Shown here piece after piece: positions 18,775 through 39,931 of a stretch of DNA of 64,000 nt. The stretch is from Promethearchaeati archaeon (lineage in GTDB: Archaea > Asgardarchaeota > Heimdallarchaeia > Heimdallarchaeales > Heimdallarchaeaceae). The stretch's first letter is position 1. Each line of letters opens with the position of its first letter. Made by a program: the position numbers and the translations under genes. The stretch lies in NCBI GenBank assembly GCA_013166775.1, contig JABLTJ010000012.1:18132-82131 (forward strand), in the 5' to 3' direction. Below the pieces are notes generated by a model, which ran no database searches, had not been told where the DNA came from, and saw only the letters and a list, made by a program, of their open reading frames with translations.

Positions 18775-18824
18775 TTGACATTCGATGTTTTATGCAATCG
18801 ATAAAGGAAGAAATAAACGGACAT

Positions 18825-19814
18825 TTATTTAATTTGTGCTGTTTTGAGATTTGTTTTATAATAAGGAGATTTTCGAATTAAATATCTTCTAATAAAAGAA
18901 CGCAACAAGAAAACAAAAAAACGCGAATATCGCATTTTATCATTTATTTCTGCAAGAAAATCGTCAAATGAATGATGTTGGTAATTCAATAATTTCTGCG
19001 ATTCTTCAGTTTCTAACCAATTAGTATAATACCAATCATCCTTCGTTTCTGGTTCTTTGAAAACTGCTTCTGGAAGCATCCCAATTCCTAATACTTGAAA
19101 ATACTTAGTCAGAAAATCACGATTTATATACTGACATTTCTTACCTCCACCAAGCATCATAATTCTTCCTTCAGTTTGAAATGTAACAGCATTAGCAAAG
19201 GCAAGTCCTACATCATAAGTATGAGCAAATTCTATTTTTTGTCCCATAGGTATTTCATATAGAAGATTCATTGCATTATCTCTAAGGGATAGTGAAGGAA
19301 CAGCAGTGGTTCTAAAAATTATCCATGGTAATCCACTTTCTTGGATGATATTTTCTGCTTCAGCTTTTGTTTTAGTATAAACATCTGAGGGATTGATTGG
19401 ATGTTCTACGGTTCTAGGAGGCAAATCTGGAGCTTGAGGACCATAGATAGATATCGAACTTGGAAAAATAATCTTTGGTGGATTCTTTTGCTTTTTCGCT
19501 TCTTTCAAAAGAACTTTTGTCCCTTCAACATTAATTAGATAAGCAAGTGCAGGTTTTTTCTCAGTAAGTGGAGGAGTTATACCTGCTAAATGAATTATAC
19601 AGTCTTGATCTTTTACTGTTTCAGCGATTAAAACCTCATTTAGGATATCTCCAAAAATTGTTTTGAAATCATACTCTCTTAGAAGTCGTTTAGCGAATTT
19701 TAGATTCTTATTTGTAAGCAGGTCAAAGCAAGTAACACAGTGTTTTGCTTTTGCTAGAAACTTCAAAGTACTCTGTCCCAAATTCCCATATGCACCTGTA
19801 AGGAGAACATTCAT
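18825..19814 (-). CDS. NAD-dependent epimerase/dehydratase (extended SDR, 3-beta-HSD-like)
   Basis: LLTGAYGNLG, IIHLAG, NVEGT, SSISIYG, YTKTK. Confidence 0.9.
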   Translation of the reverse strand: MNVLLTGAYGNLGQSTLKFLAKAKHCVTCFDLLTNKNLKFAKRLLREYDFKTIFGDILNEVLIAETVKDQDCIIHLAGITPPLTEKKPALAYLINVEGTKVLLKEAKKQKNPPKIIFPSSISIYGPQAPDLPPRTVEHPINPSDVYTKTKAEAENIIQESGLPWIIFRTTAVPSLSLRDNAMNLLYEIPMGQKIEFAHTYDVGLAFANAVTFQTEGRIMMLGGGKKCQYINRDFLTKYFQVLGIGMLPEAVFKEPETKDDWYYTNWLETEESQKLLNYQHHSFDDFLAEINDKMRYSRFFVFLLRSFIRRYLIRKSPYYKTNLKTAQIK

Positions 19815-19874
19815 AATTAGAAGTATTCTGATAAGAAATTTAAGCTTTCTTAAGGAAGAAAAAAGAGAAGAAGA

Positions 19875-21653
19875 TTATTTCTTACGTTTCGATGAGCTAC
19901 CTTTTGTTAGTGAATACGTAATAACAGAGACTATTATCTGCAAACCTAGAACAACGCCAGCCATTATTAGAATCTCTGATAAGCTTAGTGAAGTGAATAA
20001 TCCAGTTTTAGTTTCTTCAGCAATCTCTACATATTCTACATTTGAAATTGCACTGGTTCCATACTCGTTATTTGCAAGGATAGCATAGTAATAAAAACCA
20101 GTTTCGTTTAGTGTATCAGTAAAAGAAACATCAGTAGTAATAGATAGAGGTTCCCTTCCTGAAATTGACCAGATGTAAGAAGTATCACGATAGACAGCAT
20201 ATTCTTCTGCACTCAAGATTTCACTCCATTCTAAAGAAACATTCCCGATGGATGAAGGATTAGGTATAATTGGAGATAATATTGGAATAGAGGGAGTACC
20301 AGCAAATTTACGATAACAGATATCAGGATCGGTTCCTGAGCTGTCAAGATCTTCCTGTTCAATCCAGACGCAAGAAACAAAACCAAATGAATCTACTTCT
20401 AATTCTGGTTGATGCGATAAATCATTACTCTCCACAGATACGACTTCAGTTATAGACCATTGATTTATACTTGGATCCCTAAACTTGAAGAATATGTCAA
20501 AATCCGTTCCAGCCCCACTATATTCTGTTGCATCATACCATGCAACAAAAACAAAACCGTTTTTGTCTACGACTATATCTGGATGTTCAGTACTATGTCT
20601 GCTTTCACTAGAAACAACTTCAGTTAAACCCCAAGAATCAGAAGAAGTATAGAGCTTTTTGTAGAATAAATCCTGATTAATACCTGAATCTAAATAATCA
20701 GCATAATCAGCCCATATTACATGTATATCGTCATTTTGATCAAGAGCAATTTTAGGATTATATGAATTTAGGTCACTAAAAGAATTTAATAGGTTCAGAT
20801 CAGACAATGTTGAAGTATAAACATTCCATCTTCGATAAAAGATATCACCGTCAGTGTCAGCTCCGAGTATATCAGTATAATCATACCAGACAAAATGCAC
20901 ATCACCCGAGAGTGAGTTTGCTACAATTTGAGGTTTATAGGCATAAGCGCTACTTTCAGTTGAAATCAATGTAGTTGATGACCATGAAGAAGCTGTATCA
21001 TTGTAAAATTTCAAGAAAATATCGTTATCTCCATCAGCTCCGAGAATATCTGTTGGATCTGACCACGCAATGTATAAATTATCATTGTTGTCTACATAAA
21101 TAGTCAACTCTTCATGTATCGTTAGAGTACTATCAGTTGAAATCACAGAAGTAATAGTCCATGATCCCCCAGCATTTTTCTTTTTGTAGAAAACATCTCT
21201 ATCTGTATCAGCACCTAAATAGTCAGACCAATCTGTCCAAGCAATATGTATGTCATCATTTGTATCCACTGCTATTACTGGATGAAGAGAGGTATCAGTA
21301 CTTTCTGAAGACACTAATTCAAGAGGAGACCAAGTTTCAATCTCTGAGTTATATGAGATATAGAATATATCCGAATCTCCACCAGAACTAAGTAGATCTG
21401 GTGTATTATCGTACCAAACAACATGAATGTTATTATCTGAATCTATTGCTATTTGAGGACTATATGCGTTAGCTGTACTGGTATCTGATAAAATTTCATA
21501 GTTAGACCAGAACCAGGAGGAATTTGCATTTGGAAGAGAAGGATGAGCATCATTATCAATAAAAGCTTGAGGTAGAATACAACAGGAAATCATTAAGGAC
21601 AAGGTTATTAAAACAGCTAAAACTAATCTAAAGAATATGTCTATTTTTTTCAA
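19875..21653 (-). CDS. Cell-surface protein: signal peptide, 7 Asp-rich beta-propeller-type repeats, FnIII-like domain, C-terminal TM (family member A)
   Basis: Seven ~57-aa repeats (IAxDxxxxIHxxWxD...GxDxDIFY...W...VSxES); FnIII (LEWS..Y.VYR..YYYAI.A.N.YG.S..SN); TM plus basic tail. Confidence 0.8.
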   Translation of the reverse strand: MKKIDIFFRLVLAVLITLSLMISCCILPQAFIDNDAHPSLPNANSSWFWSNYEILSDTSTANAYSPQIAIDSDNNIHVVWYDNTPDLLSSGGDSDIFYISYNSEIETWSPLELVSSESTDTSLHPVIAVDTNDDIHIAWTDWSDYLGADTDRDVFYKKKNAGGSWTITSVISTDSTLTIHEELTIYVDNNDNLYIAWSDPTDILGADGDNDIFLKFYNDTASSWSSTTLISTESSAYAYKPQIVANSLSGDVHFVWYDYTDILGADTDGDIFYRRWNVYTSTLSDLNLLNSFSDLNSYNPKIALDQNDDIHVIWADYADYLDSGINQDLFYKKLYTSSDSWGLTEVVSSESRHSTEHPDIVVDKNGFVFVAWYDATEYSGAGTDFDIFFKFRDPSINQWSITEVVSVESNDLSHQPELEVDSFGFVSCVWIEQEDLDSSGTDPDICYRKFAGTPSIPILSPIIPNPSSIGNVSLEWSEILSAEEYAVYRDTSYIWSISGREPLSITTDVSFTDTLNETGFYYYAILANNEYGTSAISNVEYVEIAEETKTGLFTSLSLSEILIMAGVVLGLQIIVSVITYSLTKGSSSKRKK

Positions 21654-23660: not shown

Positions 23661-23978
23661 GTGAAAAAAATGACAATTAAAATTACGGTTTTAAAGATGC
23701 TTAATCCAAAGGAAGTATTTGGGAAAGAGATAAAGAATCCAGAAGGAAAAACTGTTCCTACATGCTCTGCTTTCGAAGAAGGGCAAGAATTTCTAATTGA
23801 GAAACTAAATAAACCGGAAAATTTCTGTGGATGGGCATGGAGAGATATCTACAAGGATTTATCTGTTTTAGATTTTGGCGGAGATTTTAGCTGGTCTGAA
23901 CCAAATCAAGCAATAACTTGCTGTACAGATGGTATGAGACCTGTGATTTTCAAATTGGAAAGATTGGTAGAACAGTAA
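23661..23978 (+). CDS. TIGR04076-family small Cys-containing protein
   Basis: KITVLK...C..F.EGQEF...PENFCGWAW.DI...CCTDGMRPVIFKLER. Confidence 0.85.
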   Translation: MKKMTIKITVLKMLNPKEVFGKEIKNPEGKTVPTCSAFEEGQEFLIEKLNKPENFCGWAWRDIYKDLSVLDFGGDFSWSEPNQAITCCTDGMRPVIFKLERLVEQ

Positions 23979-24811
23979 TGATAAATGAAGAAATTCCACT
24001 CATAGAAGAAGCTCTTCGAAATTATGGTGAAGCATTCCAAGAGTGGAACATAGAAAAATTATCAATTGCTTTTCACCCTGAAGCTATGACTTATTGGTTT
24101 ATTCCAGAGAGAGGAGGTTTCATCAAGGGTTATTGTTACGGATGGATTAGAATGTTCTTGAGAAACCAGAAAGATAATCCAGGAACCAATTTCATACCCT
24201 TTCCTGAAGAAATTGACTATGAGGGAACAGCAGCTTATGTTAGATTGAGATTTCTTGTTGAAGATGCTCAGGATCCAAGAGATACTACTGATTATCTAAC
24301 ACTACTGAAGTTCAGAGAAGGTTGGAATATCATTCACAAATCAGGTTTTACTAGGAGTATTTCTTTAGAAGAACTTAACACTATTCTTAAAGAGAAACAG
24401 GAAACAGTCAGAAATAATCCTGAGGAAGTAGAAAAAATCGAAAGAGTTCTAAAAACATATGCGGATGCATTTCATGAATTAGACAAGAATAAAGTTGTTC
24501 AGGTTTTTCATAACGATATGAAAGTCAATAGTTTAGATGTTGAAAATAATAAATTCAGGAATCGGTTCAGATCTCTTGCTGATTGGAGAGAAGTTATTGA
24601 TAATCACAAAAGAATGAATATATCTTTTAAAACAGAAGTAGAAAAAATAGATCAGCTTGGCAGTTCTGCTGTAGCAAAAATGAGATGGTTTGCTTTTAGA
24701 GAAGATGGAACATCCGAAACTGTTGATTTTCTTACTTTGCTTAAAGTTGATGGAAGATGGCTAATAGTAAATAAGACTTGCTATAGTCAGTTTAAGCCAA
24801 AAAAAGATTGA
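23978..24811 (+). CDS. Tandem NTF2-like (lumazine-binding-2 type) domain protein
   Basis: Two copies of Y..AF...AFHP...IDxxGxxA....DxLTLLKxxxxWxIVxK; true start probably the ATG at 23978 overlapping the upstream stop (TAATG). Confidence 0.8.
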   Translation: MINEEIPLIEEALRNYGEAFQEWNIEKLSIAFHPEAMTYWFIPERGGFIKGYCYGWIRMFLRNQKDNPGTNFIPFPEEIDYEGTAAYVRLRFLVEDAQDPRDTTDYLTLLKFREGWNIIHKSGFTRSISLEELNTILKEKQETVRNNPEEVEKIERVLKTYADAFHELDKNKVVQVFHNDMKVNSLDVENNKFRNRFRSLADWREVIDNHKRMNISFKTEVEKIDQLGSSAVAKMRWFAFREDGTSETVDFLTLLKVDGRWLIVNKTCYSQFKPKKD

Positions 24812-24823
24812 TTTCTTATTGAG

Positions 24824-25651
24824 GTGAAGAAGATAAAGAATAATAATTTAACAGAAATTCAAGAAATCAAGAATACTGTTCACGATTTCTATAATGGAAT
24901 CTTTGAACATGACTATGATAAAATCTGTTCTTTTTTTTATTCAGAAGGAAAATCAATGGGTTACAGTTCTAGAAGAAAGGAGATTGGTATTGTTTCCAGA
25001 AATCATTGGAAAGAGATGTTTGAAAATAATCCAATAGATCCTAATCAGAGATATCACTTTGAGATAGCAAATATTGAATATTTCAAAACTGCAGCAACAG
25101 TTCAAATTGACATCTGGGAGGAATTTGATGAAACTAGGATGGAATACAGAGATTTTCTATCTCTACTTAAATTGGAAAGTAAGTGGTTGATTGTAAACAA
25201 GGTTTTTCACAGCAATACTATGCAAATAAACAAAACAGCAGTGAAACAAAATGGGGAAACGGAAATGAAACATAAACAAACAGATGATATAGATCTGATA
25301 ATTAAGACAGTTCAGTATTATATAGACGCTGTTACTAATATTGAGCTTTCTAAAGTGAAAAAAGCTTGGCACACAAACGGCCAAAGAATATTTGTTGATA
25401 AGAAAAGCAATGAAATTGTTTTCTTAGAAAGTCCAGTGAAAGACGATGTTAAGAAGATAGAGTCTGCACTTAAGAACACAAAACAAAGATGCATGATTGA
25501 GAGCATAAATAAGAGTGGTACATCTGCTACTGCACGAATTAAATGGTTTGTTGAGAGTCCAGATTGGGTAGGTACTGAGATAAATTTCTTGTCACTTCTC
25601 AAAAGGGAGGATAAATGGGAAATTGTAGGAAAAATTGCTCACAAAGATTAG
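24824..25651 (+). CDS. Tandem NTF2-like (lumazine-binding-2 type) domain protein, paralog
   Basis: Two copies ending DFLSLLKLESKWLIVNK and NFLSLLKREDKWEIVGK. Confidence 0.8.
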   Translation: MKKIKNNNLTEIQEIKNTVHDFYNGIFEHDYDKICSFFYSEGKSMGYSSRRKEIGIVSRNHWKEMFENNPIDPNQRYHFEIANIEYFKTAATVQIDIWEEFDETRMEYRDFLSLLKLESKWLIVNKVFHSNTMQINKTAVKQNGETEMKHKQTDDIDLIIKTVQYYIDAVTNIELSKVKKAWHTNGQRIFVDKKSNEIVFLESPVKDDVKKIESALKNTKQRCMIESINKSGTSATARIKWFVESPDWVGTEINFLSLLKREDKWEIVGKIAHKD

Positions 25652-26729: not shown

Positions 26730-28538
26730 ATGTCCACAAGGCAAATCCTCCAAGAAGTACTTGATATCATGAATGATATTCATACCACTGTAACTAATAT
26801 CAATTGGAGAGATTATTCGGAAACTCGAGTGAAGATTTTAGTTACCAGGAAAACTGATGAGCTGAAACACATTATAAGTGATCTACCGGATGAAGATATT
26901 TTCAGCTCTGATGAAGCATCAACGTTTTTTGAAAAAATCCTTGACAAAATCACAAGAATTCTAAGTAATTTACCTTCAGATAAAATGCCTTTACAATGGT
27001 ACGAATTAGAACTATGGAGGTTAAGATATGCTTCTATGTATGCTTTACAGTGGGGACATGGGGGTGAATTACAGGTGGCAGGTACAGCTCATGCTCTTGC
27101 TAATGTTCTTATTGGAATTCAGACTATGGATGTGCAGGATCTCATCGTAGATTGGGATCATCCTGAATTTGAAAAACGAAGGAAATTAATTTTGAATTAT
27201 CTCAATTCTGCTTATCTTTTCTTCTTTAGTTTGTGCACATCTCTTAACCATATTTACAAACATGATGTTGAACATTGGTTATCGGAAGGAGTTAAGGCAA
27301 GTATTCAGTATCTAAAATATCTGGATTACTTCTGGAATGTCCCTAAAAATATCCAACTTGAAAAGAAGAAATATAAGAATGTAAGAGATCCTAATTATTC
27401 CCCATATTATGCGACTTTTGCTGGAATTGATTACATAGTTTCTTTCCTCTTGGATTTACAGAAATACTTCTTCAGAGATAATATAAAAATTGACACTAAA
27501 GAAGAAATCATAAATCTCAGAGAACCTGAAAAATTTCTTGAATCTCTTCAGAAGCTGGTAGAAAAAGGAGAAAATTATATTGCTGATTTCAAAAAACATG
27601 TGGATGAAGGATTTTTTGACATCAATGAAGAGCCATTGAATGATCCAGATATAAAAGAAACGATTTACGAATTATATGTATCCAAGATCTGGATAAAAGG
27701 TTTAATCGCAATAAATGAGCTAGTCATTAATGAGAATGAAGATGAGATTACTTCTTTAGTAGAATCGGTGATTCCTGAGTTATTCAAGTATGTAGATAAA
27801 TATAACCATCTCTTTAGTGAAGAGGATTTCATTCATAGTCAAATAGCTGATGGGATTAATTCAATTCTCAACGAAGTGATTTTATTTTCAGGAGTCATTG
27901 CAATAAAAACAGGGAAAACTTCAGATATAGAGAAAATTGAAAATGATTATAGAATGTTTTTCACTGAAGAAGCTATGAAAAGATATCCAACACTCAATGG
28001 TCTTTTTACAACATTTAAAATCACAAATTCAATCATAAAAGATGAAATCATCAATCTAGAAAAATATGCTCTGAAACTAATTCAACTCTCCGAGTATACT
28101 TTATACGAATCAAGGAATTCTTTTTCTTATTCTCTATTAGGTAACATGATTCTCTTAATTCTTGGTTCTATTTCAAAAGAAGAGTTCCAGAAAAATGTTA
28201 GAGATAAATTTGAATATTTGTTGCCTTCATTTTCAGAGAGCTTGATTTCAGAGATAGAGATTTATCTAGCAAATCTTAATCTAGCACTGAACGATGAGCA
28301 ATCTTCTTTCGATATGAACAGATTACTAATACCACAATATTTTGACCCTTATTCAGTTTTCATTCCTGAGTTAGGTATGCTAGCAAAGAAGTTTGAATTT
28401 AAAGAGATAGTGTATTTACCATTTAATCTTCAGAAGGACTACTTAGCTGATTCTGACCAAAAAATGATGAAGCAAATTGATACAGCTATAGAACAAACTG
28501 AAACATCCGTAGAACAACCAGATACACTTTCAGATTGA
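26730..28538 (+). CDS. Hypothetical, predominantly helical 602-aa protein
   Basis: Long ORF with a GGTGAGG SD motif upstream; no recognisable motif. Confidence 0.7.
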   Translation: MSTRQILQEVLDIMNDIHTTVTNINWRDYSETRVKILVTRKTDELKHIISDLPDEDIFSSDEASTFFEKILDKITRILSNLPSDKMPLQWYELELWRLRYASMYALQWGHGGELQVAGTAHALANVLIGIQTMDVQDLIVDWDHPEFEKRRKLILNYLNSAYLFFFSLCTSLNHIYKHDVEHWLSEGVKASIQYLKYLDYFWNVPKNIQLEKKKYKNVRDPNYSPYYATFAGIDYIVSFLLDLQKYFFRDNIKIDTKEEIINLREPEKFLESLQKLVEKGENYIADFKKHVDEGFFDINEEPLNDPDIKETIYELYVSKIWIKGLIAINELVINENEDEITSLVESVIPELFKYVDKYNHLFSEEDFIHSQIADGINSILNEVILFSGVIAIKTGKTSDIEKIENDYRMFFTEEAMKRYPTLNGLFTTFKITNSIIKDEIINLEKYALKLIQLSEYTLYESRNSFSYSLLGNMILLILGSISKEEFQKNVRDKFEYLLPSFSESLISEIEIYLANLNLALNDEQSSFDMNRLLIPQYFDPYSVFIPELGMLAKKFEFKEIVYLPFNLQKDYLADSDQKMMKQIDTAIEQTETSVEQPDTLSD

Positions 28539-28550
28539 ATAATATGGTTT

Positions 28551-30236
28551 TTAATCTTCATCTACCTTTTCCGTTAAAAGCTCTAAATCTCTTTTCCTAT
28601 TTTCAATTTCCTCTTTTTTCCGTTTGATTTGATCATCTAATTCCTGAATCTCTTTTGAGATTTTCTGAGCTTTTGAATAATCCTCTTTATCATCAATGGA
28701 GCTCAACAAAGTTTTTTGTATATCTAATTCAGCTTCTAATTCTTTGTATAAAGCATTTAATTGCTTATCTTTGAGATCTAGCTCCTCTTTTGCTCTTTCC
28801 AATCTTCCTCTCTCATTCTTCATTTTGGTTATCAAATCTTTTAATTCTTCATAACTTTCTTCTAGTTTTCCTTTATCTTCTGCTATATTATCGTGGCAAT
28901 CACAGACCTCTTCATTGAGTTTTTCTTTTTCCTTTTCATACTTCTTTATCTTTTTCTCATCGTATTCATCCTTGATTAGGCTATTAATCTCTTCTATTCT
29001 CGCTTTCTTTTCATTAATCTCGATTTGTAAATCATTAATCTCGTCGCTCATTTCATTTTCTTTCTTCTCGTGTTTCTCAATTTCCTTTTCAATGTCTGAA
29101 ATTCCAGATTCTAAATCTTGCATCTCCTTTTTCTTTTCTTCAGAAGTTATTTTCAATTGTTCGATTTTTTCATTTAGATTTGTGATCTCTATTTCGATTT
29201 TATCTATTTTATCGATATCATCTTTTAGTTCAACAACTTCTCTCAAGGTCTGTGCATCTTTCATCTTCTTCTTAAGTTCTCTATTTAAAGCTAGAATTCT
29301 CTTTTCTTTTGCACCCCTATCCTCTTCAACATCTACAATACGTAGATTATCTTCTTCTAATTTGATTTTTAGAAGATCAAGATCTACTTCTGTGTCTTTA
29401 ACCTTATGTTGAGCTATTTCCAATTTTTCGTTAATTCCGTTAATTTCAGTGAGAATATCTTGGAATTTCTCCTCATCCCTTTCTTCAATTTCTATCGTTT
29501 CGAGAGAATTCCTTCTTTCTGTTTTCTCTTTGAAAATTTTCTTCAAATCTTTTACATCATCTTTCTTCAATTTCAGCTCTTTAGATAATAAATCGATTCG
29601 TTCTTCTTCGAACATTATTTTTTCATTTAATCTTGTAATTTCTTCAGTTCTTTGATCCTTCTCTATTTCTTGTTTCTGTATCTCAGAATTAAGATCTTCA
29701 ATCTCTTTTTCGATTTTTTCAGCATCTTTCATATCATCAGATGAAGCCCCTAAAAGAATTTGGATGGATTTTTGCTTTTCTAATTTCACTTCCATTTCTT
29801 CATATAGACTCTTTAAATCTCTCTCCTTTGAGCGGATATCTTTCTCAAATAGATCCATTTGTCCAATGTCAATGAGTTTCTCTATTTTTGTGATATATTT
29901 TTGGATGTTTTTAATTCTTATTTCTCCATCTTCCAAGGATTTCCTAAAGAATAAAGCTAGATTGGAGTTTTCCCCGAGCTTGAGAATTAAAACATCTATT
30001 TCATCAGTATCAAAGAGGAGTTGATTATATCCTTTGTAATTATAATTGCATATTTCATATAATGTTCTCAAATTTGAAAGAATATTTGATAAATCGTTTC
30101 CTAACTTAGGTATGTTTACTGACTCCTCAAATTGTTCAAAAGTAGTCTGATAGACAATACCATCATTATAAAACATTACAATATGCTCTACTTCAGGCAG
30201 AGCTCTTTTTATTCTTTCTATTGTTTTTAGCACCAT
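28551..30236 (-). CDS. Roadblock/LC7(profilin-like) N-terminal domain fused to a long helical/coiled-coil repeat rod
   Basis: aa 1-122: helix, VEHIVMFYNDGIVY beta-hairpin, helix, QLLFDTDEIDVLILKL..LALFF strands, helix; aa ~125-561 E/K-rich heptads with ~86-aa periodicity. Confidence 0.72.
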   Translation of the reverse strand: MVLKTIERIKRALPEVEHIVMFYNDGIVYQTTFEQFEESVNIPKLGNDLSNILSNLRTLYEICNYNYKGYNQLLFDTDEIDVLILKLGENSNLALFFRKSLEDGEIRIKNIQKYITKIEKLIDIGQMDLFEKDIRSKERDLKSLYEEMEVKLEKQKSIQILLGASSDDMKDAEKIEKEIEDLNSEIQKQEIEKDQRTEEITRLNEKIMFEEERIDLLSKELKLKKDDVKDLKKIFKEKTERRNSLETIEIEERDEEKFQDILTEINGINEKLEIAQHKVKDTEVDLDLLKIKLEEDNLRIVDVEEDRGAKEKRILALNRELKKKMKDAQTLREVVELKDDIDKIDKIEIEITNLNEKIEQLKITSEEKKKEMQDLESGISDIEKEIEKHEKKENEMSDEINDLQIEINEKKARIEEINSLIKDEYDEKKIKKYEKEKEKLNEEVCDCHDNIAEDKGKLEESYEELKDLITKMKNERGRLERAKEELDLKDKQLNALYKELEAELDIQKTLLSSIDDKEDYSKAQKISKEIQELDDQIKRKKEEIENRKRDLELLTEKVDED

Positions 30237-30247
30237 TTTTTCTCACA

Positions 30248-31714
30248 TTATGATATAATTAATGACCTAAATTTATTGATCCCTCTGTTAATGTTAGATT
30301 TTATCTGTTCACTTCCATATTTTGAAAATATAAAAAGGATTCCAATTGTTGCAAAAACCGCTAGAATTAAGATCAGACCTATTAGATATGTTCCTCTTGA
30401 AAGCATTGTGAAGTAGATGGAAACTATGAATAGTTGTAAGATTGTCGTACTGAAGCCTATCTTCCAAAAGGTTTTCATTTTTATTGGTCGGTTATTTTGT
30501 TCAGCTATGTTGAGAACTAGTATATTATCTCCTAAAGGTGTCAAATTATCTCCCCAGTTTGCTCCGAAAGAAAGGGCATAGTAATAATCATTACTTGGTG
30601 ACATGATTCCAACAACAGGTATCAAAATCTTAGTTATAGGGATATTATCAATCATTGAGCTTAGGAATGCTGAAACCCAAATAACAAGTATAAGTTGAAA
30701 TACGGGATTATTTGCTCCTAATCCTTTTAGTAAATTTCCGATTAAAGCAACGATTCCAACAGCTTCTAATCCCCCAGCTAGAACAAATATGCCTAGTAGA
30801 TATAGAATAAGTTCAAGATCAAATCTCTTAATTATTTCTTTTGGTTTGAGTCCTAGAAATGCACTGAAAATTGTTAATAACATTGCTACACTCATCGCGA
30901 ATATATCTATAGGTACTTTATCTGAAGGGATAACTGGACCAATGAGTATGAATCCGATAAATAATATTCCTAAACTACTCATTGAAGCATATAACAATCG
31001 TCGACTTTGAACGAAGTTCCACACATTAAATTCATCTAAGGTTTCAATCAATTTTCTTCCAGGATCTCTGAATTCTTTTCTATATAGAAAGATGAAAAAT
31101 GTAATTGTTATTCCAGCAGTTAAAATCGAGAATAAACCTACATTTACAAAGAATTCATTGAATTTTATGTTAGTTTCAGTTACAATTAAAATGTTTGGTA
31201 TTGATGAAATAGAAAAGAAAGTACCTCCAATATTAACCATGATTGCTTCAGTGATAATATACGGCGTTGGATCTATTTTTAGAATACGTGAAATAGTAAT
31301 TGTCAATGGTATTAGAATCATAACTGTTAGAATATTATTGATAATTGCAGAGAAGAAAACTGAGATTATACACAGAATGGTCATCAGTGCTATAGGTTTC
31401 CCTTTTGATAGTTTAATTGCTAGAACACCAAGAAATTGAAAAAGCCCCACTTCGTCAGAAATTTGTACAATAAACATCATCCCCAGTATTAGTATAAGTG
31501 AGTGTAAGTTAACAAACCCATCATCAGGAGTTCCAAACAATAAATCCACAATAACAGAAAAATTTTTTTTCTCAATAAAGGTCAAGACAAAATAGGTGAT
31601 AACTGCAGCTGTTATAGCAGCAACCGCTCGATTTAATTTATCTGTGAAAATTAGAACAATGACAGCAAGGAAACATAAAGATATAATAATCTGACTCGCT
31701 AGAATTTTTGGCAC
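30248..31714 (-). CDS. ArsB/NhaD (SLC13/P-protein-like) ion transporter
   Basis: SAIINNILTV, NIGG....SSIPNILI, LSSMIDNIP, GANWGDNLTPLG; many TM helices. Confidence 0.88.
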   Translation of the reverse strand: MPKILASQIIISLCFLAVIVLIFTDKLNRAVAAITAAVITYFVLTFIEKKNFSVIVDLLFGTPDDGFVNLHSLILILGMMFIVQISDEVGLFQFLGVLAIKLSKGKPIALMTILCIISVFFSAIINNILTVMILIPLTITISRILKIDPTPYIITEAIMVNIGGTFFSISSIPNILIVTETNIKFNEFFVNVGLFSILTAGITITFFIFLYRKEFRDPGRKLIETLDEFNVWNFVQSRRLLYASMSSLGILFIGFILIGPVIPSDKVPIDIFAMSVAMLLTIFSAFLGLKPKEIIKRFDLELILYLLGIFVLAGGLEAVGIVALIGNLLKGLGANNPVFQLILVIWVSAFLSSMIDNIPITKILIPVVGIMSPSNDYYYALSFGANWGDNLTPLGDNILVLNIAEQNNRPIKMKTFWKIGFSTTILQLFIVSIYFTMLSRGTYLIGLILILAVFATIGILFIFSKYGSEQIKSNINRGINKFRSLIIS

Positions 31715-31890
31715 CTTTATCTAATTTTCTCATTTAATTCCAAGACTAGTTGCTTTTTATGCAATTTCTAACCGATGATTTGTCTTTGTAAGTAATTTCA
31801 AAACTACAATTATAAAACAGTTTTGTCATCTTGTTACCTCAAGTGGATAAGTCATCAACTTGAACTACATAGAAAAACAGTTATTTTATA

Positions 31891-33753
31891 TTAAGAGAAG
31901 ATTTCTTGTGCCCATTTTTCCATAATGTCACTTTTTTCTTTTTCCAGATATCTACCTGTAAGAATAGTATGACCAAAATATTGCATAAATGAAGAGGATA
32001 CTAATTTACTAGCGAATGTTTCTACTTTCTTTCTTGCTGAATAAGATGAACCCTTGAAAGCATAACATACTATGATATTTTCAATATTCTGAAAGATAAG
32101 AAGATAGTTTTGGTGCTCAATTCGTCTAATTAAACCTTCAGTCGCGAATATTTCTTGAACAATGTTATTTATCGCAGATAAGAAACCAGATAGAAGAACC
32201 TGATCTACTTTTGTATCATCACCAAATTGCATCGAAAATAACGGAATACCATTTTCATTCAAAATAATCAACATAACAGGTATATCATTTTCTATTTCGT
32301 CAAGCTCAAAAGTGGCTCTATTTATCATATTAAGTACTAAGTTATCTATTTTTGATTCCTTAATTCTATCAGCAAGACTAACATTTTCTTCGATTAAATT
32401 CTTCCATTTATTCACTTCTGAAAGCAAATTATCATGGTCATTCGAAATTCTTCTAGCTAAGTTTTCTAAATCCTGTCCTTCAGCAATTGCTTGAGCTTGC
32501 GATAAGAATCCACTAGCTTTACCTATATCTGTATCAAGCAAAGCTAGCCTCCCCTTTAGCCAGTAAACTTCTGCAAGTAGAGATTTAGAAAATTGTTGCT
32601 GAGCAATTTTCAGTATCTTATTTGTCAATTCCTCAAGATCTGAAAGGATAGTTCGATTATCGGTGAATCTTAATTCATGTAATAGAATTTCACAGAGATT
32701 TAACATTGCATGAACATTGATTTCTTGATATACTAGATTTCTCTCAATTATACTTTGAAGAATTTCTTGAGCTCTCCCTAAACTGTAGAATCTATTAATT
32801 TTGCGGAGTAATATTGCTTCAGATAAAATCGAATAGTAAAAAATCATTGTTCCGGAATGTTCTTTACTGGTTTTTTTTGATAATTCAAGATATTTCTCAG
32901 CTTCAGCAAACTGATTCTTATTTGATAGAATATTAATTAGATAATAGGAGGATTCAACAACAGTGAATTTGAAGTTTATTTCTAGAGATCTTGCCAAGCT
33001 TTTGGAAAAATATTCTAAAGCATTATCAAGATCACCTTTACTATAATATACAATCCCCACATTATTGTAAGTAATCGCCATTCCATATATATTACCAAGT
33101 TCTTGGTGATAAATCAAAGCAGTATTGTAGAATTGAAGAGCTTTACCAAAATCTCCCTTGAGTCTGTAAATCTCTCCAATAGCCACGTTACACTTCGCTA
33201 CAATGATGCTATTATTCAGTGCTCTTCCTTTTACCAAACTCTGTTCAAGTAATAACATAGATTCTTGTAAACTTCCTTTGAATGTCAGAATCTTTCCTTT
33301 ACGATATAAACATTGAGCATAGAGATCATCATTCTTTGTAATTTTGGATAAAATGAGACACTCATTTAAGTATTCCAAAGATTTTACCAAATCAACGAAA
33401 CAGAAAACAGATCCTTTTTGAAATAAGATTTTGGCAGTAATTTCCTTTGAAGAAAGAGAATTAGGATCGTTAATTTCCTTTGTTGCAAGGTATTCTGCTT
33501 TCTCAATTATAAGTAGACTATCTTCAAATCTACCCTGTTGCCAGAGAGATTCAATAATGTAACAGTAAAAATCACATTTTTGTTCGAGTGATAAGAATTT
33601 CTCTTCGAAATTGTTAAGAATTTGTTGAGACAAAATAATGCTTTTTTCAAAAAATCCAAGTTGAGTGTAGATACGTGATTTTGATAAAGCTAATTCAACC
33701 AATGAACTATCAGAGATGTCAGGAGTCTCCTCTAAACGATCTATTTCATCCAA
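31891..33753 (-). CDS. TPR-repeat protein with a C-terminal longin-like domain
   Basis: TPR motifs (IGEIYRLKGDFGKALQFY; NNVGIVYYSKGDLDNALEYF); C-term LIILNENGIPLFS..F...LLSGFLSAI. The frame is open ~23 codons upstream of the TTG, so the start is uncertain. Confidence 0.85.
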   Translation of the reverse strand: MDEIDRLEETPDISDSSLVELALSKSRIYTQLGFFEKSIILSQQILNNFEEKFLSLEQKCDFYCYIIESLWQQGRFEDSLLIIEKAEYLATKEINDPNSLSSKEITAKILFQKGSVFCFVDLVKSLEYLNECLILSKITKNDDLYAQCLYRKGKILTFKGSLQESMLLLEQSLVKGRALNNSIIVAKCNVAIGEIYRLKGDFGKALQFYNTALIYHQELGNIYGMAITYNNVGIVYYSKGDLDNALEYFSKSLARSLEINFKFTVVESSYYLINILSNKNQFAEAEKYLELSKKTSKEHSGTMIFYYSILSEAILLRKINRFYSLGRAQEILQSIIERNLVYQEINVHAMLNLCEILLHELRFTDNRTILSDLEELTNKILKIAQQQFSKSLLAEVYWLKGRLALLDTDIGKASGFLSQAQAIAEGQDLENLARRISNDHDNLLSEVNKWKNLIEENVSLADRIKESKIDNLVLNMINRATFELDEIENDIPVMLIILNENGIPLFSMQFGDDTKVDQVLLSGFLSAINNIVQEIFATEGLIRRIEHQNYLLIFQNIENIIVCYAFKGSSYSARKKVETFASKLVSSSFMQYFGHTILTGRYLEKEKSDIMEKWAQEIFS

Positions 33754-33926: not shown

Positions 33927-35672
33927 TTATTTCTTTTTGTTATCTTTGATCATTAGATATTCCTTTACTATGCTTTCTAATTCCTTTTTTGTGATTCTAC
34001 TATCTTCCTCGATTTTCCCATCCAAGAGTCTGATATGTCTAAAACCTGGACGAAGCAGAGATAAATCGTGAGAACAGACAACTACAGTTGCTTTATTTAT
34101 TCGTACAATATCCATGAGGAGATCCATGATTGTTCGAGCTAGTTCACTATCCATATTTGCAGTTGGTTCGTCAGCTAAGATGACTATTGTTTTTCGAGAT
34201 AAAGCAGCAGCTAGAGTAGCTCTTTGGATTTCACCTGCTGAAAGCTCGTTTGGATATGAATCAAGCTTGTGGTCGATGTGACATTCTTTCACAATAGAAT
34301 TACTATATTCCACATCATACTTTTCACCAGAGAAGAGATTCGGGATAAGTAGATTGTCCTTAACTTGTAATGGATCAAATAGATTGTTGTGTTGTGATAT
34401 GTAAGCAATGTTATTTAATCTGTAGAGTGAAACCAAGCTTTCTTTCTCTTCTGTTATCGGAAACTTACTCACCTTAATTGTACCTTCATTAGGTTTTATC
34501 AGTCCTGCTATAAGATTAAGAAGTGTAGTTTTACCTACACCAGAAGGACCAGACAAGAAAACAAAGTCTCCTTTGTCGATATTTAGGTCAATTTTCTGAA
34601 TAACTTCATTGTAACCAGCTTCAGATTTATATCCTTTTGAGAGACCTTTTATTCTTATGAGTGGTTGAGCTTTCTTAGGAGGAATAAATTCTCTACTTAA
34701 AATGGCTTCGACATCTTCAAATTTGACTCTCTCTATTTGTTCTTCTATGTCTTCAGCAGGACTGGTTAATAGATTGTAAATTTGATCTCGAGTGATGATT
34801 TCTGGATTCCAGAAGAGACCCATTTTTTTCGAAGGGTGCATATCAAATTCTATTATATCACTCAAAGCTGCTATTGATTTTATTTCATCAGGTATTCTGA
34901 CAAAATTTGAGGGATCAATGTAAGCTTTATTAATCTCAGAAGAGTGCATCAGAAATTCTAATTGATCTCTCCCCATATCTCTACTGATACCTGCTAATCG
35001 TCCATCTCTTAATATGAAACTTTTTTCGAAGATTGTTCTGTAGCGAATATCATGTGTTACAACAAGAATAGTTGTACCTAATGACATGTTTACTTGCTTG
35101 ATTGTCTCAATCATTTCACGAGTGTGTTGACTGTCCAATTGCCCTGAAGGTTCATCTGCCAAGATAATTTCAGGTTTTTTAGCAAGAGCTACTCCCAGAG
35201 AGAGTCTCATTGCTTCTCCTCCAGATAACTTTGCAACAGTATTATTCTTGACATGTTCTAAGTTCAGTAGTTTAATTAGCTCATCAACTTCTCTGTTCGA
35301 TTGCTCTCTAGGTAGGTAGAAGATTTTCTTAGGGATAAGTAAATTCTGTCGTACACTTAGATGAGAAAAGAGATTTTCACTGATGAATTGATTAATCATT
35401 CCAACACTATAAAATCTGAACTCTCGTCTTTCATACTCATTCAGCTTGTCAAATCTTTGATCCTTAATGTATAATGCACCACTAGTTAATTCATCGACTC
35501 CAGCTATCATATTAATTAGGGTGGTCTTTCCTGAGCCACTTGGACCGATAATACTTACTAGTTCTCCTTCCTTTATGTTAAGATTAAGCCCTCTTAAAGC
35601 TGCAACTGAAACTTCTGTAACAGAATCTTGGTAGATTTTTATTATATCTTCGCATCTTATCATCTTTATCAC
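33927..35672 (-). CDS. ABC ATP-binding protein with two fused LolD/MacB-type ATPase domains
   Basis: GPSGSGKTT/LSGGE/ILADEP/VTHD and GPSGVGKTT/LSAGE/ILADEP/CSHD. Confidence 0.9.
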   Translation of the reverse strand: MIKMIRCEDIIKIYQDSVTEVSVAALRGLNLNIKEGELVSIIGPSGSGKTTLINMIAGVDELTSGALYIKDQRFDKLNEYERREFRFYSVGMINQFISENLFSHLSVRQNLLIPKKIFYLPREQSNREVDELIKLLNLEHVKNNTVAKLSGGEAMRLSLGVALAKKPEIILADEPSGQLDSQHTREMIETIKQVNMSLGTTILVVTHDIRYRTIFEKSFILRDGRLAGISRDMGRDQLEFLMHSSEINKAYIDPSNFVRIPDEIKSIAALSDIIEFDMHPSKKMGLFWNPEIITRDQIYNLLTSPAEDIEEQIERVKFEDVEAILSREFIPPKKAQPLIRIKGLSKGYKSEAGYNEVIQKIDLNIDKGDFVFLSGPSGVGKTTLLNLIAGLIKPNEGTIKVSKFPITEEKESLVSLYRLNNIAYISQHNNLFDPLQVKDNLLIPNLFSGEKYDVEYSNSIVKECHIDHKLDSYPNELSAGEIQRATLAAALSRKTIVILADEPTANMDSELARTIMDLLMDIVRINKATVVVCSHDLSLLRPGFRHIRLLDGKIEEDSRITKKELESIVKEYLMIKDNKKK

Positions 35673-38600
35673 TCCAGATTCCTTGGTGTAAACCTCACAA
35701 AGTTTATTTTCATTGCTACAAAGAAAATTAAATAGAACAGAATAGGTATTCCCAGAAATATCAGTAACATTGCTGGATAGGGATAAGGAATAACATAAGG
35801 AATTGATGAGTATGTAAAACTCAACATCAAAAATCCTGTTAATCGAACTAATCCGTAACCTGCTACTCCACCAAGAAGCAAACCAGGGAGGATTGCAGAG
35901 ATTAGAAGTTCTAATCCTGTCATGAGAATAATATTATTTGAAGGGATACCTATTTTTTTCAAGACATCATGTTTAATAATACGTTTTTGCAAAATCTTGA
36001 TTGGATTACTTAGACTTGTAAATATAATTGCTACCAAACAGATTAGAATTCCAAAAACAAATTCAGCTGTCATCAACGAATAGAATGGAAAATCTCTGAT
36101 CAACAATGTATCAGCTTCTTCTTCTGTTGATTCCACATTTATGTTGAGATCCTTCTCAAGTTGTTCTGCAAACTTAATTTGATTTATCGTTGGTTTCAAT
36201 TTAATTAATAATCTATCAATTGTATTCCCTTCGTATTCATGAGTTGACTCATTAAGTTTCTTGTAATTTTCCTTATTAGTTACAAAATAATAATCACTGG
36301 GAAGGAGTGATTCTTGTTCATCATAAAAAATCGGATAGAGGTTAAAAGTTGAGGAAATAGTAAATGTAAATTCTGCTGATCCATTTGAAAAAGTATAACT
36401 AGATTCTTCTCTAGATACAAAGTTGAAAAATGCTCTTGAGACCATCATGGTATCTAGTAAGTCTGTTTCTTGAACTCTATCGTTCCAGTCCTCGAAGATG
36501 TACTTCGGTGGTTTGAATGCTGATGATAGATAATCATTAATGTTATTGTAGACAAGAGTATATAATGACGTATAATAATAGAAATTATGATATACAGAGA
36601 TATTAGATATGCTATCAATTTCATTATAAAGATTTAATTTACCCAATATGCTGGAAGTATCAAGATCTTGCCAATTACTAATATATAGATCACTTCCTCC
36701 ATGAAGTAACGTTTCGTTTTGAATCTTAGTTTGGATTGCTATCGGTGACAAAATGAATGGCATTATTACTCCTATAATGATAACGTAAGTTAAAAAAGTG
36801 TTATTGAATAAATTGATATCAGAACGTACATCAACTAGAGAAAGAGAAAATTTGGTTTTCTTTATTCTCCAAGATATTTTACTTAGAACAATCATTAGAA
36901 TTTTATGAAGATCTTTCATCAATAATCCGACGCCAAGTAGAGCAACCATTACTCCTATACCCATAAGATAAATGAAGATTAGAGCAAAACTTGCAATGCC
37001 AGGGACAGCGAAACCAAATGCAAACATACTAAATAACCAGATACCTATTCCAGCTATTATCCCTCCAAGAATGATAATAAAGATGTGATTTAATCTAAGT
37101 ATTTTAAGTAATTTAACTAGTCTTCTTGGAGTTTTTTGTATTTTCTTCTCAGCTTTTGACATACGAACTATTCGTGGAAACGAAATTAGTATTAAAAGAA
37201 TCAAAGTTATACCTACTGAGAGAGGAACACTAGTGAAACTTATTTTTGCGGGTGTTTGTTTAAATTCAAGAAACTTGTCTACCCTTATTAATGGAGGTAA
37301 AAGAGCTAGAGTTATTAAAAATCCAATTAGAGCTGAAAGTATTGCTTCTATTGTTTTCATAGAGAGATAAATGAAGGAGATATTACCCGTTGATAATCCC
37401 TTGGATCTTAAGATTCTTATTTCTTGTTCGAAACTTAATCCAAATAATTCATTCACTTCGAAAATTAGAAACCACGCTAGATATATAATTGGTACTAAGA
37501 TAAAGAGGACAAGAATTTGAGCTGTTGCTAAAGTAGATTCTATACCATAAAATGCATATAAGAATTCATTATTAATTATCCAAATACTTTGAGGGAGATG
37601 AGAAAAACTGTAAGGACTTCTGCTTACCAAAGTATTCAGTTCTTCATTCAAAACTGAAATTTCATTTGGAGAAATATCTGAAAAATCATAGGAAAACTGA
37701 ATATTACCTAGTATATAAAGAGAAGAACTTGTTACGTTTTCATAAGTCTTGAAGAAATAATCCACAGGATTTAATGCAATATTGTGATTAGTTAGGAAAT
37801 TAACAGGATCTTTAGGTAGATTAAGTTCTTTACATAATGAGATCAAGACTGAATAACTGGGAACACTAATTATTCCCTTAATTGTCAGATTGTTGTCAGA
37901 AAATGGCAAATCAATAATTTCACCAAGTTGAAGATCAAGTAAATCTTGAAGATATGAAGAAATGAGAATATCTCCACTATCAGTTGGAAGATTACCTTCT
38001 TCAAGCAAGGATTTTAGAAGTGGATTATAGCTTTCTGTATATGCATGATTTTCTATATAATCATCCAGACCTACTTGAATTGACAAAGATGAACCTAAAG
38101 AATAATAATATCCTGTGATTATTCTAGAAAACAAAACTGTGTTTCTCTCTATTGAATTTACTATTTCTTCTATCGCCATTTCTGTTATGTTCTTGGTTAA
38201 ATCACCTATGGTTACACCTATAGAAGGTATACTGAAATATACTGATGAAGTACCGTTATCATATATATCATAATTAGAAATATAATCAAAAACTAAAGAA
38301 TTTCTTTTTGAATCATAAAGACTTGCGCTTGCAATAATTATTGTTGCTAGGATAGTAAACCCAAGCAAATTGATAACCAAACGTTTCTTATTAGTTCTCC
38401 ACAGCACAAAAATCAAACTTGAAGCATTTAGAAAGAATAACCAGATATTAGTAAATACAAGTTTTGCTTTTGAAACATCAGCAATAATGGGTCGAAGTAA
38501 GAAAGCTTTCAGTTTCTTAATACCTCTGTTTATTCTTTTGTGAAAGATTGCATAAGTAAGACCAAAAACTGCAATTGGGACTGCCAATGCGTACCAATAT

Positions 38601-39931
38601 TTTAACCAAAAATATGCAAATGCAGAATAATTCTTAAGACCAAATAGTAATGGTTGTTCTGGGTAAAAAATAGAGAGATCAGAATACAGATTCATTGCAA
38701 TTACGAACTTACCTAGAAAATGAAAATTGGAAATTTGCTTAGTGCTCAAAGATGATGTATAGCTTACGAGATAAGACCCGTTTTCAAAAACATATGCAGA
38801 TGCTGAATAAAACGAATATCTTACTACTCCCCTTTCAAGAGTAATTTCTTCAGCAGATAAGGTATTTTCTTCTTCTGTTATGATTGTAATTTTCCCAGTA
38901 ACACTATAGTCATACCCATATCTAGATGCATCCTCAATATAGTATACATCACTGAATTCATCAAATACATAGTAAGTAGCATTCTCATAAGAATGTACAT
39001 GATATTCACTCATATAATACTTTTCAAGAGCTATAGACGTAAAAGATGATTCAGATATTGTTTCATTTATATCGAATTCAGCGGTATAAAAACTTCCATA
39101 GGACACGAAAGAAATATGGAATTTGTTATCAGATCCAACAGCTAAATCTGATTCGAACCAGTCCATTTCAAGTGTGATAGAGGTAGAATTATAATAACTC
39201 TCTACCTGATATCCGGTACTAAATCCAACTACAGTAAGAGTCATATTATAATGATCTTGACCATAATTAGAAAACTGAAGTAATCCAAATAACTCTCCAT
39301 TCATAATTGCTAAGGAGCGTAAATAATATGGGGAAAATGGTAACTCATAATTCTTGTTTATTACTGAACCATTTGGATAGATTGCTCTATGATAAATAAT
39401 TGAGTTGGCTTCCCAATTCTCGTCAACATACAGAAGATGAATGGCATCGTCTTCTACAAAGAAATAAGCAGATTCATGATACTCTTGAGAAATAAAGATT
39501 GAAGATATTTCAGAGTTTTCTTCAGTCCATTCATAGAGTCTTAAGATTGTACCGTAATGTTGACCACTAAGTGAATAGAAGAGATAAATCCCATCCCCTA
39601 CAGTTCTAGCTTCAAAAGTATAAGAAGCATAATAATCGCTTTCAATGACTCTTTCAATTTCATCATTTACAACATGTAAGATAACAAATGAATAATTAAA
39701 ATAACTAATCTGAACAAAGTAATGAGTCCTATCCTCAGAATCAAGCAAAGCTCTTGTTTGTATCCAACTTATATCATCAGAGCTTTTTGTATACATTATT
39801 GGTTGGTCAGTAACAACATCGGGGAGAGCAAAAGAATTTGTGGAACTTAGAAAAGTCATAAAGATAACAATTGCCAGAGCAACAGTAAGAATTTTTTTCC
39901 TTCCAAGTTTTAACATTACCATGGTTATCAC
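35669..39931 (-). CDS. Very large FtsX/MacB-type ABC permease with an extra N-terminal extracellular domain
   Basis: Signal peptide, ~410-aa beta-rich Tyr/Ser-rich domain, TM, two FtsX-like blocks (EIRILRSKGLS; HDVLKKIGIP); overlaps the ATPase start (GTGA). Confidence 0.8.
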   Translation of the reverse strand: MITMVMLKLGRKKILTVALAIVIFMTFLSSTNSFALPDVVTDQPIMYTKSSDDISWIQTRALLDSEDRTHYFVQISYFNYSFVILHVVNDEIERVIESDYYASYTFEARTVGDGIYLFYSLSGQHYGTILRLYEWTEENSEISSIFISQEYHESAYFFVEDDAIHLLYVDENWEANSIIYHRAIYPNGSVINKNYELPFSPYYLRSLAIMNGELFGLLQFSNYGQDHYNMTLTVVGFSTGYQVESYYNSTSITLEMDWFESDLAVGSDNKFHISFVSYGSFYTAEFDINETISESSFTSIALEKYYMSEYHVHSYENATYYVFDEFSDVYYIEDASRYGYDYSVTGKITIITEEENTLSAEEITLERGVVRYSFYSASAYVFENGSYLVSYTSSLSTKQISNFHFLGKFVIAMNLYSDLSIFYPEQPLLFGLKNYSAFAYFWLKYWYALAVPIAVFGLTYAIFHKRINRGIKKLKAFLLRPIIADVSKAKLVFTNIWLFFLNASSLIFVLWRTNKKRLVINLLGFTILATIIIASASLYDSKRNSLVFDYISNYDIYDNGTSSVYFSIPSIGVTIGDLTKNITEMAIEEIVNSIERNTVLFSRIITGYYYSLGSSLSIQVGLDDYIENHAYTESYNPLLKSLLEEGNLPTDSGDILISSYLQDLLDLQLGEIIDLPFSDNNLTIKGIISVPSYSVLISLCKELNLPKDPVNFLTNHNIALNPVDYFFKTYENVTSSSLYILGNIQFSYDFSDISPNEISVLNEELNTLVSRSPYSFSHLPQSIWIINNEFLYAFYGIESTLATAQILVLFILVPIIYLAWFLIFEVNELFGLSFEQEIRILRSKGLSTGNISFIYLSMKTIEAILSALIGFLITLALLPPLIRVDKFLEFKQTPAKISFTSVPLSVGITLILLILISFPRIVRMSKAEKKIQKTPRRLVKLLKILRLNHIFIIILGGIIAGIGIWLFSMFAFGFAVPGIASFALIFIYLMGIGVMVALLGVGLLMKDLHKILMIVLSKISWRIKKTKFSLSLVDVRSDINLFNNTFLTYVIIIGVIMPFILSPIAIQTKIQNETLLHGGSDLYISNWQDLDTSSILGKLNLYNEIDSISNISVYHNFYYYTSLYTLVYNNINDYLSSAFKPPKYIFEDWNDRVQETDLLDTMMVSRAFFNFVSREESSYTFSNGSAEFTFTISSTFNLYPIFYDEQESLLPSDYYFVTNKENYKKLNESTHEYEGNTIDRLLIKLKPTINQIKFAEQLEKDLNINVESTEEEADTLLIRDFPFYSLMTAEFVFGILICLVAIIFTSLSNPIKILQKRIIKHDVLKKIGIPSNNIILMTGLELLISAILPGLLLGGVAGYGLVRLTGFLMLSFTYSSIPYVIPYPYPAMLLIFLGIPILFYLIFFVAMKINFVRFTPRNLE

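Follow-up and report, generated by a model that had tools for sequence, protein, structure and literature searches.

The 'eukaryotic signature' parts of Asgard archaea include Roadblock and longin proteins, which are mostly treated as small-GTPase platforms. MglB of Thermus and Myxococcus is a Roadblock-dimer GTPase-activating protein (GAP) that acts on the small GTPase MglA, which is usually encoded beside it. In Ragulator, where LAMTOR heterodimers and Rag GTPases are found at lysosomes, Roadblock-fold proteins are tied to a membrane transporter, SLC38A9, an amino-acid transporter that contacts the Rag GTPases and belongs to a different transporter superfamily from the permease considered below. 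A permease that docks a cytoplasmic partner is also known from the ArsA–ArsB arsenite pump. From within the Asgard phylum itself, structures have been solved for Roadblock3 (9jue) and Roadblock2 (9jq8) (Ca. Prometheoarchaeum syntrophicum MK-D1) and for a Thorarchaeota Roadblock (7f8m), in a paper that has 0 occurrences each of the words transporter and coiled coil (Tran et al. 2024, PMC10933270). These solved proteins are dimers of stand-alone domains of ∼110–130 aa that carry no coiled-coil tail. Here we describe a gene from a 64,000-nt stretch of a Heimdallarchaeaceae genome (contig JABLTJ010000012.1; the whole stretch is called the window below). Its product, P0001, has a Roadblock-fold head on a long helical rod, and the gene directly follows that of a permease. 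On balance we favour the reading that P0001 belongs to a Roadblock-fold family so far met only in Asgard archaea, of which it is a form expanded in its lineage, and that it serves one ArsB/CitMHS-type secondary transporter as a dedicated partner on the cytoplasmic side.

The gene and its head domain

The P0001 gene is an intact open reading frame (ORF) on the minus strand of the window (28551..30236; window G+C ∼31%) and encodes 561 aa, its extent being taken from the ORF, its translation and its homologues. We found 16 homologues with 71–87% identity in the head, and all those that carry an organism name come from metagenome-assembled genomes (MAGs) of the Heimdall group. The gene is single-copy in its own genome. 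The stretch is present in three marine-sediment DNA runs, all from one study, and no RNA run is listed as containing it. The head is far better conserved than the 435-aa rod: identities among the long forms are 70–87% for the head versus 42–80% for the rod, and 70–78% versus 42–50% when the closest homologue is excluded. The rod is strongly acidic, with a net charge of −39, and has no proline.

An exhaustive search with aa 1–135 as the query gave 62 cluster representatives of the head family, many of them stand-alone proteins of 120–145 aa, many of 200–310 aa, and the remainder of the 561-aa form. A profile of 49 heads (alignment A2), which the head of P0001 matches with E 3.4e-51, served for structure prediction with AlphaFold2 (AF2). 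The model (predicted local distance difference test, pLDDT, 77.6; predicted template modelling score, pTM, 0.71) places in the head, aa 1–125 (29862..30236, minus strand), a helix (3–12), two strands (16–23 and 28–31), a second helix (42–62), three strands (72–76, 80–86 and 91–98) and the start of a third helix at aa 108. When this model was compared with the PDB using Foldseek, 149 matches were obtained at E ≤ 1e-3, and the top 50 were all Roadblock, MglB, LAMTOR or LC7 proteins. The best was the Asgard Roadblock3, 9jue_A (E 7.7e-8, TM 0.70/0.77, rmsd 3.1 over 127 columns), to which the A2 profile also gave its best match among PDB sequences (annotated 'Roadblock/LC7 domain protein', E 2e-3, with nearly the whole domain covered). 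A structure model of P0001 in the Atlas likewise matches Robl_LC7 clusters. The roadblock-like head proposed in an earlier reading of the DNA, made from the sequence alone (the sequence-only reading), is thus borne out by the AF2 model, the Foldseek list and the profile match.

Sequence profiles from curated collections see little of this. The Pfam Robl_LC7 model (PF03259) does not match P0001 or its aa 1–130 at E ≤ 1 and weakly matches 8 of the 49 family heads (best E 4.8e-4); NCBIfam gives no Roadblock match to the whole protein or to the head. With the whole of P0001, Pfam and NCBIfam return generic coiled-coil matches only (tropomyosin, SMC, Rad50), far under their cut-offs. By fold the head is a remote member of the Roadblock/LC7 superfamily, and it is an outlier to the curated sequence model. 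It has the fold of the solved Asgard Roadblocks at ∼12% identity. Members of the superfamily dimerise through the edge strand and helix 2, and by analogy with the solved relatives the head is probably a dimer as well.

The same fold is found in MglB (1j3w, 3t1s, 6izw, 6h5b), where it is followed by a C-terminal helix and matches the head with Foldseek E of ∼1e-7 and TM of 0.6–0.7. One stand-alone member of the family is labelled an MglB-family regulator in IMG. MglB has no long repeated rod. The conserved neighbour of P0001 is a permease gene, and no cognate small-GTPase gene was found in its gene context. The LAMTOR subunits of Ragulator are also among the structural matches (1veu, 6b9x, 5x6v). 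Here the homology seen is that of the Roadblock fold, and the likeness to Ragulator is otherwise one of analogy, no Rag-like partner being linked to P0001.

The head gene is paired with a permease gene

Upstream of the P0001 gene and on the same strand lies a gene for a 488-aa permease of the ion-transporter superfamily (30248..31714, minus strand), recognised as ArsB/CitMHS/MamN-like from Pfam, NCBIfam and PDB comparisons. In Pfam it matches CitMHS (1e-48) and ArsB (9e-10). Its NCBIfam matches to MamN and ArsB (1e-21) fall far short of the cut-offs for those families; among PDB sequences the closest is ArsB 10tp (E 3e-8). As read directly from the sequence, 11 nt (30237..30247, minus strand) separate the stop codon of the permease gene from the ATG of the rod gene, and a search of 28300–32100 for a terminator-like site found none. 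Among the homologous loci, spacings of ≤10 nt and overlapping genes occur.

The first point to note is how strictly this arrangement is kept. The permease gene is directly upstream, on the same strand, in all long-form loci with readable upstream DNA, and the pairing extends to family proteins with 126, 130, 212 and 309 aa, among them heads with identity as low as 25%. With tblastn on 45 fetched loci, a permease orthologue (46–78% identity) was found just upstream on the same strand in 44; in the 45th, which is the weakest family match, the permease gene is adjacent but divergent. Other neighbours vary, and the permease is the sole neighbour conserved across Asgard families. P0001 thus has both features by which we define, for this analysis and not from any curated collection, a family of permease-partnered Asgard Roadblocks: a head homologous to A2 and an orthologous permease directly upstream.

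Co-occurrence gives the same picture. We searched a sample of 300 Asgard genomes from 30 families, and the permease matches were bimodal: those of at least ∼49% identity adjoin a head gene in the same genomes, and those of 27–37% are paralogues, which occur in many genomes without a head. By a hand count from two tables, the head is strongly matched in ∼69 genomes, each of which also carries the orthologous permease. In two others there is a permease match of 42–49% identity and no head match. In the second family of the window's class, the same 9 of 21 genomes hold both genes.

In another genome of the window's own family (G086, contig C31, ∼13229–21381) the permease–rod pair is tandemly duplicated: three permease copies, with 51–57% identity to that of the window, are interleaved with two rod genes whose open frames are of 553 and 555 aa.

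The permease is a distant relative of ArsB and, as in the ArsA–ArsB pump, is encoded with a soluble partner, but the partner of ArsB is an ATPase unrelated to Roadblock, and there were no ars genes among the scanned neighbours of P0001. A literature search, combining roadblock with Asgard, coiled-coil, transporter and ArsB, gave no description of a permease–Roadblock pairing. Within that literature the architecture is undescribed, as the sequence-only reading had suggested. That reading did not take in the permease gene 11 nt upstream, which we regard as the decisive context.

We also predicted the complex of the permease with the head, using a permease alignment (A3) together with A2. The median score was 0.36 (runs 0.36, 0.60 and 0.32), against 0.00 for the best control. 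At least 87% of contacts are common to the runs, with a partner pLDDT of at least 67. In calibration, 58 of 80 solved complexes and 2 of 110 mismatched pairs reached the mark for a positive score; only 7 of the 80 solved complexes, and both of the mismatches, did so with scores no higher than 0.60. Graded as weak support, the prediction may add a little to the strong prior given by the gene pairing, and is not proof of binding.

Distribution of the family and origin of the rod

The head family is present in 4 of the 30 sampled Asgard families. In the window's own family, 22 of 28 genomes have the head, in open frames of 553–575 aa where these are complete. The second family of the same class (9 of 21 genomes) has proteins of ∼208–229 aa. 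In a family of another class, the head is found in 44 of 67 genomes at E ≤ 1e-5, mostly in proteins of ∼205–223 aa, and the fourth family (2 of 7 genomes) has proteins of ∼131–137 aa. Among the sampled families, then, long forms are confined to the window's own, and all members of the head family that bear an organism name come from the Heimdall or Hel group of Asgard archaea. In the alignment of homologues, the full-length long forms are of 561–568 aa throughout; we looked among them for variation in repeat number and found none, tail length differing only between Asgard families.

Comparison of the tails points to how the rod arose. A profile of 20 short-form tails is colinear with aa 109–207 of the long form (hhalign probability 97%, E 1.5e-10), has a second match at aa 491–559, reaching the C-terminus (probability 85%, E 6.6e-6), and a weaker third match at aa 340–426. 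From these alignments, the ancestral tail would therefore be a single helix-turn-helix of ∼100 aa. The long form looks like this ancestral hairpin plus two hairpin units of ∼175 aa that arose within one lineage by internal duplication. In the evolution of one head family, tails would thus have gone from none at all to a rod of 435 residues, which offers a clear case in nature of a coiled coil made longer by duplication of hairpin units.

Periodicity of the rod

The sequence-only reading had described the rod as a periodic coiled coil of five ∼86-aa helical repeats with turns like those of UVR domains. The five 20-residue segments on which it relied are present verbatim at aa 167, 253, 339, 425 and 518, with spacings of 86, 86, 86 and 93. 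In a BLOSUM autocorrelation of the single sequence (aa 126–561) the maximum is indeed at lag 86 (z 5.8), and 300 residue shuffles reach z 4.4 at most. Other lags equal to 2 modulo 7 (65, 93, 100 and 114) score nearly alike (z 4.4–5.0), so that the single-sequence signal at lag 86 is partly heptad background; the heptad lags 7, 14 and 21 are themselves significant. A profile from 11 full-length homologues (alignment A1) was compared with heptad-block shuffles. Lag 86 then has z 8.0, with 0 of 300 shuffles reaching its score, and lags 179, 93 and 172 rank after it.

The strongest local diagonals are at lags 173 (aa 130 to 303), 179 (aa 318 to 497) and 352 (aa 127 to 479). Since the first two of these lags are of ∼173–179 aa, the rod is better described as two hairpin units of ∼175 aa flanked by two partial ones. 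The periodicity is genuine, conserved and hierarchical, a super-repeat of ∼175 aa made of two ∼86-aa halves. The internal repeat and the 86-residue lag of the sequence-only reading therefore stand, but the unit of duplication is the ∼175-aa hairpin and not one of five equal copies. Its likeness to UVR turns proved to be visual only: the five turn segments, scanned singly against the UVR model (Pfam PF02151) at E ≤ 10, gave no match, although the HMMER filters discard most very weak matches and a remote likeness could escape them.

One further conserved feature is a C-D-C-x-D-N patch at aa 445–450 (28887..28904, minus strand), seen in the alignment of homologues. Conservation is complete for C447 and at least 90% for D446, D449 and N450; in one homologue C-x-x-C stands in its place. 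The cysteines of the patch are the only ones in the rod. The C-D-C (aa 445–447) lies away from any predicted apex, and the short forms of ∼210 aa do not have the patch. Cys, Asp and His are typical ligands of metals and metalloids, and the partner gene of the protein that carries the patch encodes an ArsB-like permease.

Predicted structure of the rod

AF2 modelling of the full-length protein gives five rod helices, aa 108–162, 166–246, 255–423, 427–512 and 517–560, mostly with pLDDT >90 and with breaks at 163–165, 247–254, 424–426 and 513–516. The first of these is the stalk helix that leaves the head (aa 108–162; 29751..29915, minus strand), a partial repeat unit that is homologous to aa 283–338 and 458–512 (the lag 173 and 352 diagonals from aa 127–130) and that aligns with the tail of the ∼210-aa short forms. 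It ends at a G-A-S break (aa 163–165; 29742..29750, minus strand), which would be the first fold-back point and whose residues G163, A164 and S165 are the same in each of the 11 full-length homologues. Hairpin unit 1 (aa 166–338; 29223..29741, minus strand) is predicted to consist of a helix at 166–246, a tip at 247–254 and a helix at 255–338. Hairpin unit 2 (aa 339–515; 28692..29222, minus strand), related to unit 1 by lags 172 and 179, would begin with a helix at 339–423 continuous with unit 1, followed by a tip at 424–426 and a helix at 427–512. The last element is the C-terminal helix (aa 516–561; 28554..28691, minus strand; AF2 helix 517–560), which from its alignment with the short-form tails appears to be the first half of a further unit and to correspond to the C-terminal helix of the short forms. 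In the model aa 255–423 form one continuous helix of 169 aa, with a dip in pLDDT to 74 near aa 331–340.

The predicted hairpins superpose well on solved antiparallel ones. With VIA-align, aa 205–298 fit prefoldin (1fxk) with rmsd 1.8 Å, aa 175–324 fit the 137-residue hairpin 8gmh_E with 1.7 Å, aa 386–462 fit the CHMP4B hairpin (4abm) with 1.0 Å and aa 344–509 fit the Smc5/6 arm (7qcd_B) with 2.7 Å. From these ranges, the model therefore holds two long antiparallel hairpins on one 169-residue helix, with tips at ∼aa 250 and ∼aa 425. Across the antiparallel hairpins compared (prefoldin 1fxk, CHMP4B 4abm, the SMC-family arms 5xg2 and 7qcd, and the dynein stalk 5ayh) rod segments superpose within 1.0–2.7 Å, but this is generic helical geometry, the Z scores of 11–15 being within the tool's range for unrelated helical models, and no sequence relation or common domain was found. 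A Foldseek search of the PDB with the full-length model gave no match at E ≤ 1e-3, and the matches it did list were generic long coiled coils only (Rad50, axonemal proteins, MukB).

Taken at 0.15 nm per residue, the model would correspond to a rod ∼25 nm long and two- to three-stranded, in which the three motifs of highest conservation (near aa 165, 339 and 515) would come together half-way along its length. The sequence-only reading had the helices folding back at each turn, and had named a single continuous parallel coiled coil as the prediction that would speak against it. The AF2 monomer gave antiparallel hairpins, with chain reversals at the conserved breaks; aa 339, in contrast, lies in mid-helix with no turn.

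Interpretation

These results can be brought together as follows. The permease and the head would be made from one transcript, the genes being 11 nt apart here and overlapping in some relatives. The Roadblock head of ∼125 aa would dock on the cytoplasmic face of the permease, probably as a dimer, with the tail, an acidic antiparallel helical hairpin, projecting into the cytoplasm. In the window's own family the ancestral hairpin tail of ∼100 aa would have gained two tandem units of ∼175 aa. Such a partner would most likely regulate or position the transporter, and the rod could be a spacer or a scaffold for further binding. What is observed is a distinct Roadblock family, well conserved, with a membrane transporter as the one partner that is constant in its gene neighbourhoods. 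Should the two proteins bind, they would represent a new kind of transporter accessory subunit and a testable case of a Roadblock protein at the membrane in the closest archaeal relatives of eukaryotes.

Several points weigh against this interpretation. Proteins encoded in a conserved operon need not make contact, and we know of no experiment or solved complex with a Roadblock protein bound to a permease of the ion-transporter superfamily. The score for the complex lies in the weak band, where passes are wrong more often than right unless there is a strong prior, and the prediction returned no interface. Fusions of permease and head were sought among the 62 family representatives and none was found; the full-length head matches all begin at residue 1 of proteins that are of ≤309 aa or of 561 aa. 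The best NCBIfam scores of the transporter, far under the family cut-offs, assign it no substrate. As to the rod, the fold-back topology comes from a full-length AF2 monomer with a pTM of 0.38, in a run that modelled the head poorly (pLDDT <50), and predicting a monomer favours models in which long amphipathic helices fold back.

It is therefore worth asking whether the rod is folded back at all. It could instead be a parallel, in-register homodimeric coiled coil of ∼65 nm, nucleated by the Roadblock dimer, with the conserved motifs as stutters or hinges, and would then be a long tether or a filament-forming cytoskeletal element. Roadblock domains do dimerise (PMC10933270), which would set two stalk helices side by side, and the significant heptad lags, the uninterrupted helix at aa 255–423, the generic long coiled coils returned by the whole-model fold search and the low pTM (0.38) all suit such an arrangement. 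Against it, the helix-breaking G-A-S at 163–165 is invariant and the turn motifs are conserved, and the helices that flank the breaks match in length (81/84 and 83/86 aa), as antiparallel pairing requires. The rod is also modelled with pLDDT >90, its hairpins superpose on solved ones at 1.0–2.7 Å, and the short forms carry one helix-turn-helix only. Considering both sides we regard a parallel rod as unlikely, if worth keeping in mind. The sequence-only reading had also given the head, on a tether or filament-type scaffold, a GTPase-regulatory role. This would make it a platform of the MglB or Ragulator kind, acting as a GAP or guanine nucleotide exchange factor (GEF) scaffold for one of the many small GTPases of the organism. 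In its favour, Roadblock dimers are known to act as platforms for GTPases (PMC10933270), the structural matches of the head include MglB bound to MglA (6izw, 6h5b, 3t12) besides the LAMTOR/Ragulator structures 1veu, 6b9x and 5x6v, the IMG name given to one stand-alone member points the same way, and the genome holds at least 40 Arf/Ras-like matches. None of 40 such matches, however, is on the window's contig (C7), no GTPase is among the ten neighbours scanned, the permease is the only neighbour conserved across Asgard families, and a common fold does not show a common function. The GTPase-regulatory role is thus without support from gene context, and we rate it as distinctly improbable.

A GTPase platform could nevertheless be compatible with the link to a transporter, the permease-bound Roadblock dimer serving as a docking site. 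Carried further, this would give an Asgard 'transceptor', in which the permease reports the availability of its substrate through a Roadblock dimer that docks one or more small GTPases, a prokaryotic forerunner of the lysosomal transporter–Ragulator–Rag logic; the ∼25-nm rod of this lineage and its C-D-C patch would then be a spacer or a second, possibly metal-dependent, site linking the membrane complex to other structures of the cell. This is a speculation to which we would give very little weight. A chromosome protein of the SMC/Rad50 type is scarcely conceivable. JGI labels two homologues 'chromosome segregation ATPase', NCBIfam SMC_prok_B matches aa 341–560 with E 2.6e-13, next to weaker SMC and Rad50 matches, and VIA ranks a coiled-coil fragment of Smc first (Z 15.1, rmsd 8.2). 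But the SMC_prok_B score is 48.6 bits against a cut-off of 567 and covers coiled coil only, there is no Walker A motif, Pfam finds no SMC_N, ATPase or hinge domain, and the N-terminus has the Roadblock fold. The SMC and Rad50 scores are coiled-coil noise and such an identity is refuted at the level of domain content, in agreement with the sequence-only reading, which had excluded it.

Other genes in the window

Upstream of the permease gene by 176 nt, and on the same strand, is P0002, a 620-aa tetratricopeptide repeat (TPR) protein (31891–33753, minus strand; Pfam TPR_12 4e-19). In the Atlas model its C-terminal ∼150 aa appear to resemble longin-type domains (coatomer zeta/Clat_adaptor_s, TM 0.63/0.54) and also the C-terminal domains of Asgard Arf-like GTPases; the domain has no Pfam or PDB sequence match. 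As a relative of the head it was rejected (hhalign probability 0.2%), and so was P0002 as a conserved third member of the locus, as a small TPR gene precedes the permease only in two loci (L011 and L012) and not in the others. Further upstream, a protein with two ABC-type ATPase domains (33927–35672, minus strand) has its start overlapped by 4 nt by a 1420-aa ORF with no Pfam match (35669–39931, minus strand), and the two may form an ABC system with an unrecognised large partner.

On the other side of the rod gene, and convergent with it, P0003 is a 602-aa ORF (26730–28538, plus strand) that matches nothing in Pfam or NCBIfam. In several homologous loci the convergent downstream gene instead encodes a protein of ∼345 aa with faint acetyltransferase matches. 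A 151-aa ORF just upstream of the phosphoglycerate kinase gene (15995–16450, plus strand) has a faint match to Fuz_longin_1 (E 0.17) and may be another small protein of longin or Roadblock type. Finally, two adjacent genes (23918–24811 and 24824–25651, both plus strand) each encode a tandem pair of 'putative lumazine-binding'/SnoaL-like domains of the NTF2 fold (PF12893, 1.5e-26 and 4.6e-23).

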